From Candidatus Binatia bacterium (GTDB taxonomy: Bacteria; Desulfobacterota; Binatia; Bin18): 64,000 nt of DNA. Where the stretch lies: contig OY761159.2 of assembly GCA_963664395.2 (NCBI GenBank), positions 1,408,001 through 1,472,000 of the forward strand, written 5' to 3'. Positions 52,284 through 54,296 of the stretch are shown here, piece by piece. The stretch's first letter is position 1, and each line of letters opens with the position of its first letter. A model generated the notes under the pieces. That model was not told the origin of the DNA and searched no databases. It was given only the letters and a program-made list of their open reading frames with translations. Made by a program: the position numbers and the translations under genes.

Positions 52284-52359
52284 TAGAGTCAGACTCTAGT
52301 AGGCCGCTTGTGCCACGTCAAGCTTGACTCCAGACCGTGCACGCAGTACTCCAGACCGT
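52284..52359. promoter_or_regulatory. Candidate operator elements in a divergent intergenic region
   Basis: Perfect inverted repeat TAGAGTC-A-GACTCTA (52284-52298); direct repeat ACTCCAGACCGT at 52327 and 52348. Confidence 0.45.
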
Positions 52360-52374
52360 ACTTGTGGTGCGGAC

Positions 52375-52650
52375 ATGGAGCTGAGCGACATTTACTTGCG
52401 GGTTGAGCGGGCCGATATTGCGCTCATCAAATGTGTCATCGAGTCCTACGAAGAGTTCGGCATTGTGCGCACGATTGATAATAAAAAGGCCATTATCGTG
52501 CTCCTGATCGTGCCGGACTTTATTGAGCATACCTGGGCCGCGCTCGAATCACTCCGCCAGCACATGGACTGGCATCAAGTCCCTCGTCCAACAGAACATG
52601 ACGACTGGTTGATGGAGAAGATGCATCCGGAGAATAAGGGCTCAGCGTAG
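52375..52650 (+). CDS. DUF4911-like small protein
   Basis: IYLRVERADIALIKCVIESYEEFGIVRTID pattern. Confidence 0.7.
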   Translation: MELSDIYLRVERADIALIKCVIESYEEFGIVRTIDNKKAIIVLLIVPDFIEHTWAALESLRQHMDWHQVPRPTEHDDWLMEKMHPENKGSA

Positions 52651-52693
52651 GTCCGAGGGCCCACGAACTCACTTCCACCACACACAATCGACT

Positions 52694-52939
52694 ATGGCCA
52701 AACACTCCGATTGGGTCACAGCAAGTGAAATTGGAACCTACGTCTATTGCGAGGAAGCGTGGCGGCTGACGCATGGACTCAAAATCCCGCCGGGCAATGT
52801 GCGGGCGCTCCGCCGCGGAACGGAAACGCACGCCGCGTGGCAACGGGTTGAACGCCGGACTGCCCGGCTCATGCGACTCGCTCTCATTGTGGCGGCTATC
52901 GCCCTGGCCTGTATCCTGCTCCGTGTCTACCTGTCGTGA
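52694..52939 (+). CDS. Cas4-like nuclease N-terminal half with a C-terminal TM anchor
   Basis: VTASEIGTYVYCEEAW and GTETH, then RRTARLMR-LALIVAAIALACILL. Confidence 0.72.
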   Translation: MAKHSDWVTASEIGTYVYCEEAWRLTHGLKIPPGNVRALRRGTETHAAWQRVERRTARLMRLALIVAAIALACILLRVYLS

Positions 52940-53424
52940 TGGCCATCCTGACGCTGCTGCTCAGCCTGTCCGTCCTGCTCTTTGTGGTTGCCCTCATAGG
53001 CCGTCGCCGGGCCGGCTTTGGCTCCGGCAGGACCATCAGCCACGATGACGTGCGGCTGTCTTCCGAGCGCTATATGCTCCGCGGGCAACCGGATCGGATT
53101 GTCCAACGCGGGCGATATTTTATTCCGGAAGAAAAGAAGTCCGGACGACAGATGAACGAGAGCTATCAAGCCCAACTCGGGGTGTATCTGGTGTTAGTCG
53201 AAGAAGAGTACGGCGTCCGGCCCCCCTACGGCTTCATCATTTTGAGAGACGGTGAGCGGGTCAAGGTGAAAAACACGCGCAGGCTGCGTTCGCGGGTGAT
53301 TGGTATTGCGGAACGCATTCGAGCGCATCGTCAGCAGCTCGACAAATCCCTCTCCCCACCCTCTACGCCAGCCAAGTGCCAAAACTGTAGCCAGCGTCAG
53401 AACTGCGAGCAGCGGTTGGTGTGA
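52939..53424 (+). CDS. Cas4-like PD-(D/E)xK nuclease C-terminal half with an N-terminal TM anchor
   Basis: MAILTLLLSLSVLLFVVALIG-RRR; GQPD, EEKKS, QLGVY, KCQNCSQRQNC; TGATG coupling to the upstream ORF (in-frame GTG at 52936 is an alternative start). Confidence 0.82.
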   Translation: MAILTLLLSLSVLLFVVALIGRRRAGFGSGRTISHDDVRLSSERYMLRGQPDRIVQRGRYFIPEEKKSGRQMNESYQAQLGVYLVLVEEEYGVRPPYGFIILRDGERVKVKNTRRLRSRVIGIAERIRAHRQQLDKSLSPPSTPAKCQNCSQRQNCEQRLV

Positions 53425-53437
53425 AAGGACGCGGAAA

Positions 53438-53791
53438 ATGACACGAACAAAGAGCGCGACGAACCCCATTGAATATGAAGAGAATAGCGGCAATATCTTT
53501 GCGGACATTGGACTGCCCAACCCAGAGGAACATCTGGCCAAGGCGGAGCTTGCCTTTCAAATCTGCCAGATAATCCGGGCACGGAAGCTCACTCAGGTCA
53601 AAGCAGCTAAGCTGCTCGGTCTCAAGCAGCCGAATGTCTCTGCACTCATGAAAGGCCATTTGGACGGGTTCTCGGCTGAACGCTTGTTTCGCTTTCTCAA
53701 TAAGCTGGATAAGTCCATCGAAATTGTTATCAGGGACAAACCGCGTCAGTCCAAGCATGCTGATGTACGGGTTGTCGTGGATGCCGTGTAG
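53438..53791 (+). CDS. XRE/HTH_37 transcriptional regulator (HigA2-like antitoxin)
   Basis: SGNIFADIGLPNPEE..KAEL..LTQVKAAKLLG..QPNVS..FSAERL. Confidence 0.88.
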   Translation: MTRTKSATNPIEYEENSGNIFADIGLPNPEEHLAKAELAFQICQIIRARKLTQVKAAKLLGLKQPNVSALMKGHLDGFSAERLFRFLNKLDKSIEIVIRDKPRQSKHADVRVVVDAV

Positions 53792-53838: not shown

Positions 53839-54180
53839 CTAGGCTGGCAGGGGTGCTCCCTTGACATGTATTGTGGCCTCATTGCGGGACTTGGGCTTGG
53901 GCTTAAAACTGATAGTGACATCATAGTCGAGCTTCCGCATGTAGCGGAGCAGCCGGTCGATTGTGAACTTCTCCAGTTTGCCCCGAACCAGGTTCGAGAC
54001 GCTCGGTTGTGGCAACCCAAGAATAGCCCCTGCTTCCTCTTAGGTGAGGCCCCGTTTCTCAATCAGCTCTCCAATGCTCAAGGCGATGGTCGCTTTCACT
54101 AAGCGCTCCTCTGGATTTGGCAGATTGAGGTCAGCGAACACATTTCCGCTTGAAAGCGTTACTTTGATATCTGTACTCAT
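53839..54180 (-). pseudogene. Second XRE/HTH_37 paralog with an internal stop
   Basis: MSTDIKVTLSSGNVFADLNLPNPEE..RGLT*EEAGAILGLPQPSVSNLVRGKLEKFTIDRL; TAA at 54040-54042 replaces the conserved Gln. Confidence 0.82.
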
Positions 54181-54296
54181 GGCTTTGCTTTTCTCCTCAG
54201 AGCGTACTGCTCCCGATAATGCTGCTCGGCAGCCCTCAAACGTTGTCGTACCAGACATCTTCGCGCGCTCGGAAACGCCGGCCCATCAAAAGGCCA

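Follow-up and report, generated by a model that had tools for sequence, protein, structure and literature searches.

Two overlapping genes of a Binatia bacterium encode the halves of an apparently undescribed, probable membrane-anchored Cas4-type nuclease outside CRISPR loci

Can a nuclease of the Cas4 family, whose members are typically single soluble polypeptides, be assembled from two small membrane proteins? The question is raised by two overlapping open reading frames (ORF1 and ORF2) in a 64,000-nucleotide stretch of DNA from Candidatus Binatia bacterium (assembly GCA_963664395.2, contig OY761159.2, positions 1,408,001 to 1,472,000 of the forward strand), referred to below as the window, in whose own coordinates the genes are given. 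An earlier inspection of the letters and translations (the sequence-only reading) had assigned the N-terminal elements of Cas4 to ORF1 and the rest of the fold to ORF2, and had proposed that the two are coupled by a TGATG overlap, are both anchored in the membrane with their soluble parts in the cytoplasm, and lack any CRISPR context. We report here that the pair represents a real and conserved variant of Cas4, apparently an undescribed one, in the form of a two-subunit, membrane-anchored and CRISPR-independent nuclease; this molecular reading is well supported by the sequence evidence and consistent with modelling. Most probably, the translationally coupled operon specifies a single Cas4-family nuclease, heterodimeric and anchored in the membrane, with a PD-(D/E)xK active site and an iron-sulphur (Fe-S) cluster. 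The 81-residue tail-anchored subunit would provide the first cysteine of the cluster (C19) and a G-x3-H motif, and the 161-residue subunit would provide D52, E65, K67, Q79/Y83 and the other three cysteines, the two transmembrane (TM) helices pairing in the membrane and the soluble parts lying at its cytoplasmic face. Because ligands and motifs are divided between the chains, both the active site and the binding site of the cluster would exist only in the assembled pair.

ORF1 (52694..52939; this and all other features of the pair are on the + strand) encodes the 81-residue small subunit, which consists of an N-terminal Cas4 module and a C-terminal TM helix. Its sequence opens with MAKHSDWVTASEIGTYVYC and includes the motif A10-S-E-I-G-T-Y-V-Y-C19. 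In an alignment of 27 homologues of ORF1 (A2), A10, C19, W23 and G42 are invariant, and E12 and H46 are conserved in at least 90% of the sequences. The codon of C19, the presumed first Fe-S ligand (27/27 homologues), is found at 52748..52750; the residue aligns with the cysteine of the YCP motif in the Cas4 structure 4r5q and belongs to the predicted interface with ORF2. The G42-x3-H46 motif (52817..52831) aligns with the RG..H of 4r5q, and H46 is presumed to be a metal ligand of the active site by analogy with His62 of SSO0001 (available text of PMC13621843). The TM helix spans approximately residues 58-80 (52865..52933), with a Kyte-Doolittle (KD) hydropathy of 2.0-2.65 that exceeds 2 across 19 residues; the basic segment R54-R-T-A-R-L-M-R61 lies ahead of and at the helix, and one residue follows it. 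At the TGATG (52937..52941), the TGA stop codon of ORF1 (52937-52939) and the ATG start codon of ORF2 (52939-52941) share one base, a stop/start overlap typical of translational coupling that places ORF2 in the -1 frame relative to ORF1; an in-frame GTG is present upstream of this ATG, at 52936.

ORF2 (52939..53424) encodes the 161-residue large subunit, in which an N-terminal TM helix (residues 1-21, 52939..53001; KD up to 2.95) is followed by R22-R-R24, by the catalytic core of Cas4 and by the three cysteines of the C-terminal part. Across 28 aligned sequences, the PD-(D/E)xK motifs G49-x-P51-D52 and E65-x-K67 (53083..53139) are conserved in that G49, P51, D52 and K67 are invariant and position 65 is either E or D, while Q79 is invariant and Y83 occurs in at least 90% of the sequences in the Q79-x3-Y83 motif (53173..53187). 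The three presumed C-terminal Fe-S ligands, C147-x2-C150-x5-C156 (53377..53406), align with the C..C.....C of 4r5q, C147 being invariant and C150 and C156 conserved in at least 90%.

Comparison with known families supports, at the level of sequence, the assignment of ORF1 and ORF2 as complementary halves of one Cas4-type domain. ORF2 matches the Pfam family Cas_Cas4 (PF01930) with an E-value of 1.7e-10 (41.7 bits, cut-off 22.7), over model positions 52-158 of 160 only, and the PADLOC Cas4 model with 6.1e-19, Cas4 models being matched from about position 51 onward. Matches of the small subunit fall in the N-terminal part of the fold. The N-terminus of Cas4d (PADLOC) is matched by a clostridial homologue of ORF1 (1.7e-5), and the best match of the A2 profile in the PDB, a weak one (E=0.041), is to residues 55-107 of the Cas4 protein 4r5q_A, with the YC-P and G..H motifs aligned. 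The profile of 28 ORF2 homologues (A1) matches residues 120-214 of the same protein (3.3e-6), as well as 8d3l_I and 4ic1. The two halves thus tile Cas4, with the break between them, and in a fused relative (locus L023) a single match to PDDEXK_1 runs through the hydrophobic insert, from model position 3 to 247. Motifs and tiling therefore agree with the division of the fold that had been proposed from the sequence alone. Of the traits that characterize Cas4, the PD-(D/E)xK motifs (GxxD and ExK) and QxxxY are found in ORF2, and the four cysteines (one N-terminal, three in a CX2CX5C arrangement) are present but divided over two chains, locus L012 lacking the last of them; in place of one soluble polypeptide, the protein is specified by two genes whose products carry one TM helix each.

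Two consecutive frames for one domain could in principle reflect a frameshifted pseudogene, an assembly error or a programmed frameshift that produces one chain, and both the position of ORF2 in the -1 frame over the stop of ORF1 and the existence of fused relatives in archaea would suit such an explanation. We nevertheless give it almost no credence. Among 13 other Binatia loci, the junction reads GTGATG in 11 and TAATG in L006, and is broken in L010 only; 12 other Binatia assemblies share the junction. Contigs assembled from runs X3, X4 and X15 cross it with 0 gaps, and show no indel. Contig C5 of the same genome (12,991 bp), which is 97.4% identical to C1:1453396-1466410, also carries both ORFs with an intact junction; a true duplication was considered for this second copy and rejected, C5 being a co-assembled strain variant of the window region, in keeping with the 5.4% contamination figure. 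Both genes are under purifying selection within Binatia (median dN/dS of 0.17 for ORF1 over 90 pairs and 0.09 for ORF2 over 78 pairs) which, together with their conservation across phyla, indicates that the ORFs are more than chance. These findings dispose of sequencing or assembly error and of a pseudogene. A programmed frameshift is rejected since type, spacing and frame of the junction differ between lineages, with overlaps of 1 nt, 4 nt or 10-16 nt or spacers of 13-199 nt, and with each of the three frame offsets represented, as expected of two separate genes. The coupled two-gene split read from the window alone has thus been borne out by independent assemblies. As for RNA libraries, a contig of X15 spans 52457-53157, junction included, and contigs of X16 cover 52421-52867 and 53126-53305, which indicates presence in these libraries and is not proof of transcription or of a single transcript.

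The distribution of charged residues is strongly asymmetric in both subunits. In the 27 homologues of ORF1, 122 lysines and arginines (K/R) are found in the 15 residues before the TM helix and 16 after it, where the tail averages 2.6 residues; in the 28 homologues of ORF2, the N-terminal tails (mean 2.6 residues) hold 4 K/R and the 15 residues after the helix hold 106. By the positive-inside rule, this bias places the soluble parts of both subunits in the cytoplasm, as had been suggested from the arginine clusters of the Binatia pair alone. The cytoplasm is also where Fe-S proteins are matured. When the two chains were modelled together, the pair reached an interface score (ipSAE) of 0.73 (0.74, 0.72 and 0.73 in the individual runs), the best of three controls scoring 0.00. 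Of 80 solved complexes, 58 attain this mark, as do 2 of 110 mismatched pairs. Contacts agree between runs to at least 96%, and the predicted local distance difference test (pLDDT) of the partner is at least 78. On the side of ORF1, the predicted interface comprises residues 6-29, 45-46 and the helix 59-77, C19 and H46 included, and on the side of ORF2 the helix 1-22 and residues 46-53, 66-68, 73-83, 120-141 and 146-158, among which are C147, C150 and C156. The model is therefore consistent with paired helices and with a cluster site shared by the two chains, although Fe-S binding and nuclease activity are here predicted properties.

A number of observations weigh against this reading and are best considered together. 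ORF1 has no match above the cut-off of any curated family and none at all in PF01930, NCBIfam or PADLOC; its match to PDDEXK_1 (E=0.0083, 16.5 bits) is under the cut-off of 22 and is confined to model positions 3-51, the first fifth of the model. ORF2, for its part, scores 62.7 bits against the NCBIfam cas4 model TIGR00372, slightly below the cut-off of 65. The genes look degenerate in two Binatia loci: in L010 (OZ243979.1), a frameshift interrupts ORF1 and a premature stop ends ORF2 before the last cysteine, and in L012 (CAXXHG010000043.1), ORF2 ends ahead of that cysteine. Since the halves resemble solved single-chain Cas4 proteins, the success of the pair model may mirror that likeness only; the complex prediction, moreover, yields contacts rather than coordinates, and the structure model obtained for a fused relative is poor (pLDDT 65.4, predicted template modelling score 0.54). 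The best fold matches of this low-confidence model are Cas4 (8d3q_J, 2.3e-6), ACE1 (1.6e-5), AdnA (7sjr_A, 5.2e-5), MGME1, SSO0001 and Dna2. Finally, the genomic contexts described below differ between phyla and so indicate no single role.

The two-gene arrangement is not a rarity but a large family. Among close homologues of ORF2, nearly all of which are 150-190 residues long, 65 of 74 start with a hydrophobic helix. A profile search of 1.84 billion representatives returned 3432 clusters at a threshold of E<=1e-3, of which 177 reached E<=1e-30; when the best 150 cluster representatives were classed by script, 106 were of the split type, 9 were fused, 28 were fragments or without the distinguishing marks, and 7 fell elsewhere. 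The 56 loci placed in genomes belong to Binatia, Isosphaeraceae planctomycetes, Chloroflexota, Clostridia and two archaea, and a gene of the ORF1 type lies directly 5' of ORF2 in 28/28 clostridial, 16/18 Chloroflexota and 8/9 planctomycete loci. The paired TM split seen in the window thus recurs in Planctomycetota, Chloroflexota and Clostridia. In the ESM Atlas, ORF1 falls among unnamed clusters of 79-85-residue "hypothetical proteins". Given that the small subunit (80-100 residues) is annotated as hypothetical and the large one as Cas4 or PD-(D/E)XK nuclease, surveys may count the latter as a truncated Cas4 and miss its partner.

Single-chain forms are found in archaea (L023, L032, P0075, P0214) and in a few other cases, and have the N-terminal module separated from the core by 2, approximately 4 or approximately 10 hydrophobic helices. 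We propose that the pair belongs to a CRISPR-independent ("solo") Cas4 lineage whose fused form would have a TM hairpin inserted between these two parts, and in which the gene would, in most bacteria, have been cut between the two helices. The tree of split and fused forms (FastTree, 121 rows, 128 columns) is poorly resolved: the best tree implies 6 changes between the two states, only 1 of which is forced by well-supported branches, and one row (P0130, 178 residues) is probably mislabelled as fused. A search for longer homologues gave a single protein and amounts to weak evidence. Some of the fused proteins are of unusual build. In an uncultured archaeon, L032:4897-6831 encodes 645 residues comprising an N-terminal cysteine module, about ten helices, a Cas4 core and two TRAM domains, and P0214 (574 residues) is similar, with about nine helices. 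Three metagenomic fused proteins of 319-417 residues (P0093, P0095 and P0103) are placed by the tree beside the Binatia clade and have a long charged insert between the cysteine module and the TM hairpin; P0093 and P0095 have in addition an N-terminal domain of about 80 residues before the cysteine module, where P0103 has only about 29 residues. This extra domain may resemble HicB-type antitoxin folds.

Is the pair connected with CRISPR? No cas family is represented among the 148 neighbouring ORFs of 15 loci, and no cas1, cas2 or array is present in the surroundings of the pair that were examined. The pair is therefore not encoded with an adaptation module or within a CRISPR-cas locus, and corresponds to what has been termed solo-Cas4, a Cas4-family gene outside CRISPR-cas and other recognized contexts. 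It could still act in trans as an adaptation factor for distant cas1-cas2 modules: PF01930 has no other match in the genome, and the genome does have Cas1 genes and arrays. The Cas1 genes are, however, about 1.9-2.0 Mb from the pair and lie in type I-E and I-F loci, subtypes without cas4 according to the available text of PMC5704561. We consider such a role highly improbable, and the absence of CRISPR context noted from the window alone extends to the 15 loci scanned. The CRISPR-Cas loci of the genome map to approximately 3,372,000-3,384,000 and 3,497,000-3,506,000 of G000:C1, with arrays near 2,954,087, 3,372,000 and 3,507,000. For Cas7e and Cas6e of the I-E locus, the ORFs delimited by a crude gene caller match their models only partly, and some genes there may be damaged or miscalled.

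In Binatia, the pair is preceded by a DUF4911 gene (52324-52650, + strand), 43 nt upstream of ORF1, and by two CoA-transferase genes on the opposite strand. A scan for consensus matches revealed no promoter-like or terminator-like site on the + strand between DUF4911 and ORF1, from which it is possible that DUF4911 is co-transcribed with the pair; contigs of RNA libraries also join the 3' end of DUF4911 to ORF1. As a partner, DUF4911 was rejected on the grounds that it is retained in genomes without the pair and occupies the upstream position only in Binatia. Downstream, an intact gene for an XRE-type regulator (HTH_37, 4.9e-25; 53438-53791, + strand) begins 13 nt past the stop of ORF2. The sequence-only reading was right about this position, but the gene is not supported as a functional neighbour because the sequence 3' of ORF2 varies among Binatia: in L001, HTH_37 and Gp49 are accompanied by more HTH genes, in L012 a CoA-transferase gene follows directly, G078 differs as well, and in the contigs of X4 and X15 the divergence sets in immediately past 53424. 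For want of conserved adjacency, XRE was rejected both as a regulator of the pair and as part of a toxin-antitoxin module with it. A break divides a second HTH_37 gene (53839-54258, - strand), convergent to the first, into two ORFs, which match model positions 1-33 and 43-78. No toxin of the Gp49/HigB type is present in the window, and L001 has one at the equivalent place. The patch between the pair and tatC, which is variable, looks like a collection of decaying toxin-antitoxin cassettes, and the pair stands at its edge in this genus.

The pair is itself accessory in the genus, being maintained where present and repeatedly deleted. It is full-length in the genome of the window (G000) and in 3 of 10 other genomes, further hits in the class being ordinary Cas4 proteins or Cas4-Cas1 fusions without the helix. 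The pair has been lost from the syntenic site in G094 and G102, where the boundaries of the deletion differ; G034 retains only the last ~113 nt of ORF2; and G086 is without the pair, DUF4911 lying there about 126 nt from tatC.

Among the named loci, the closest relatives of the pair outside Binatia are planctomycete plasmid copies. Copies in planctomycetes lie near TrwC/MobF relaxases (L013, L014, L019, L022), and RefSeq plasmids bearing the pair include pSINAC03 of Singulisphaera (conjugative, MOBF) and PALBO2 of Paludisphaera, where its neighbours are DNA methyltransferases, VapBC and UmuDC, and where the annotation reads "hypothetical protein" for the small gene and "PD-(D/E)XK nuclease family protein" for its larger partner. 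In all, 3 of 72,556 plasmid records were matched and none of 50,697 phage records. Plasmid pTA3_3 of Tundrisphaera sp. TA3 (L019 and L022) carries two copies of a block made up of a TrwC relaxase, the pair, a TIR/SEFIR gene, a Piwi gene and an integrase; the TIR/SEFIR gene is convergent to the pair and forms with the Piwi-domain gene a short Argonaute-type pair. Piwi neighbours in this block thus come from one plasmid in two copies; a Piwi gene also occurs in L020.

The contexts in Clostridia and Chloroflexota are of another kind. In all 28 clostridial loci, a yhaM-like gene (OB and HD domains) lies immediately 5' of the pair on the same strand, often with a 4-nt overlap, and in 21 of the 28 a gene for a TRAM-RumA-type methyltransferase follows 3'. 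A two-component system and HtrA usually precede this yhaM-pair operon (L027, L043, L055, L072-L087 and others). The Sporanaerobium order is represented by 81 genomes, of which 39 are hit by the ORF1 profile, each with a single copy. In Chloroflexota, the order recJ, brkB, pair, hisS, nadK ... recN is seen at L034, L036, L044, L049 and L052, except that recN was not found in L034; L038, L040 and L048 have the same cluster without recJ and/or brkB, and in L037 and L026 the pair is followed by nadK and then recN. Loci within each phylum are kin, so that these counts overstate the number of independent observations. Taken together, the contexts point to the handling of nucleic-acid ends or single strands.

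What the enzyme might do with such substrates can be approached from either set of contexts. The sequence-only reading had envisaged DNA crossing the membrane, and it is conceivable, if doubtful, that the pair serves in defence or exclusion at the point of entry, where a tethered nuclease would degrade single-stranded or linear DNA arriving by conjugation, phage injection or uptake. The planctomycete copies on plasmids or in regions resembling integrative and conjugative elements, with their relaxases, adjoining DNA methyltransferases and, at L019 and L022, the TIR and Piwi genes, are suggestive of such a role, as are the patchy occurrence of the pair in the genus of the window (deleted in G034, G094 and G102, missing in G086, broken in L010) and its position beside the toxin-antitoxin patch; ACE1, a Cas4-family enzyme outside CRISPR, acts in defence according to the available text of PMC12094033. 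Set against this, the clostridial and Chloroflexota pairs are single-copy genes in conserved housekeeping neighbourhoods rather than in defence islands, the phage records yielded nothing, and no PADLOC system model was matched beyond domain hits of the Cas4/DruK type. A plasmid copy could, besides, equally serve the plasmid.

Those neighbourhoods make it possible, though again we hold the idea only tentatively, that the pair performs a housekeeping task, processing ends of DNA, or possibly of RNA, at the membrane together with YhaM (a 3'-5' exonuclease) or with repair of the RecJ/RecN type. The invariable yhaM-like gene and frequent TRAM-RumA-type gene in Clostridia, the recJ/recN cluster in Chloroflexota, the single copies in the Sporanaerobium order and the two TRAM domains that end the archaeal fused protein of L032 all speak for it, and solo-cas4 genes are described as inherited mainly vertically (Hudaiberdiev et al. 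2017, available text of PMC5704561). Kinship among the loci of each phylum nevertheless means that synteny does not count as many independent observations; hisS, nadK and tgt may be incidental neighbours; and the Binatia pair is dispensable and has no adjacent yhaM, recJ or recN. On balance, a housekeeping role suits the YhaM and RecJ contexts no less than the idea of DNA crossing the membrane suits the MobF plasmids. A broader proposal, which we regard as unlikely and less probable than either of these, would unite them: the pair would be the founding example of a widespread two-subunit Cas4 of the cytoplasmic membrane that acts on single-stranded or linear DNA entering or leaving the cell by conjugative transfer, uptake or phage injection. 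Plasmid copies would then function in exclusion or establishment, and chromosomal copies, with YhaM or RecJ, in the trimming of DNA that is incoming or broken. If true, a membrane Cas4 at the sites of DNA entry and exit would represent a CRISPR-independent, ancestral job for Cas4.

Whatever its substrate, the heterodimeric, membrane-anchored Cas4 proposed here, conserved as two chains, offers a concrete handle on the role of Cas4 outside CRISPR, the more so as its predicted place of action is defined: we infer that its substrate would be DNA, as ends or as single strands, on the inner side of the membrane. The predicted sharing of the Fe-S cluster and active site between subunits provides a built-in test of assembly, and yhaM, recJ/recN and the MobF plasmids are candidate genetic partners. 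The family is within experimental reach thanks to its cultured hosts, which include Singulisphaera acidiphila DSM 18658 (pSINAC03), Paludisphaera borealis, Sporanaerobium and Cellulosilyticum. Like the sequence-only reading, which knew of no functional account of this arrangement, full-text searches combining Cas4 with membrane terms found no description of a split membrane-anchored Cas4 in print, although supplements may list the clade. The Cas4-rich paper PMC13621843 deals, in its available text, with a different, DUF2779 lineage; there, and in the available text of PMC5704561, the functions of solo-Cas4 are described as poorly understood.

With the CRISPR-associated Cas4 proteins (PF01930/COG1468; 4R5Q Pcal_0546, 4IC1 SSO0001, and 8D3L/8D3Q of the type I-C Cas4-Cas1-Cas2 complex), the pair shares the core motifs, QxxxY and the one-plus-three cysteines, and these proteins are its best sequence matches in the PDB as well as the best fold matches of the low-confidence model of a fused relative. 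Unlike them, it consists of two TM-bearing chains, has no cas1, cas2 or array nearby, scores under the NCBIfam equivalog cut-off and is presumably fixed at the membrane instead of being docked on Cas1-Cas2. Solo-Cas4 proteins (PMC5704561; for M. mazei, Rentz et al. 2025, PMC12501428) are likewise encoded by cas4-family genes outside CRISPR-cas loci. The solo-Cas4 of many Chloroflexi was described as monophyletic and mainly vertically inherited by Hudaiberdiev et al. (available text of PMC5704561), which fits the single-copy, syntenic pair of Clostridia and Chloroflexota. The words "transmembrane" and "split" are absent from the main text of that paper, as are "transmembrane" and "membrane" from the text of PMC12501428; the supplements of both may list the family without comment. 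ACE1 resembles the pair in being a Cas4-family nuclease outside CRISPR (fold match 1.6e-5), and Piwi and TIR genes stand beside the pair at two planctomycete loci; in contrast, the available text of PMC12094033 reports neither TM helices nor a split for ACE1, the window has no nearby Argonaute, and the planctomycete Piwi neighbours are convergent.

The Fe-S nuclease domains of AddB and AdnA are of the same fold class and have the same clamp of one N-terminal and three C-terminal cysteines, and AdnA is among the fold matches; the pair differs from them in having no helicase and in being membrane-anchored, split and much smaller. Its association in Clostridia with yhaM, the gene of a 3'-5' exonuclease, may recall the two-polarity logic of AddAB. 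EndA and NucA, finally, are membrane-bound competence nucleases of a different fold, not known to carry an Fe-S cluster and facing outward. What the pair would have in common with them is the idea of a nuclease fixed where DNA passes the membrane, except that the K/R bias puts the pair on the inside.

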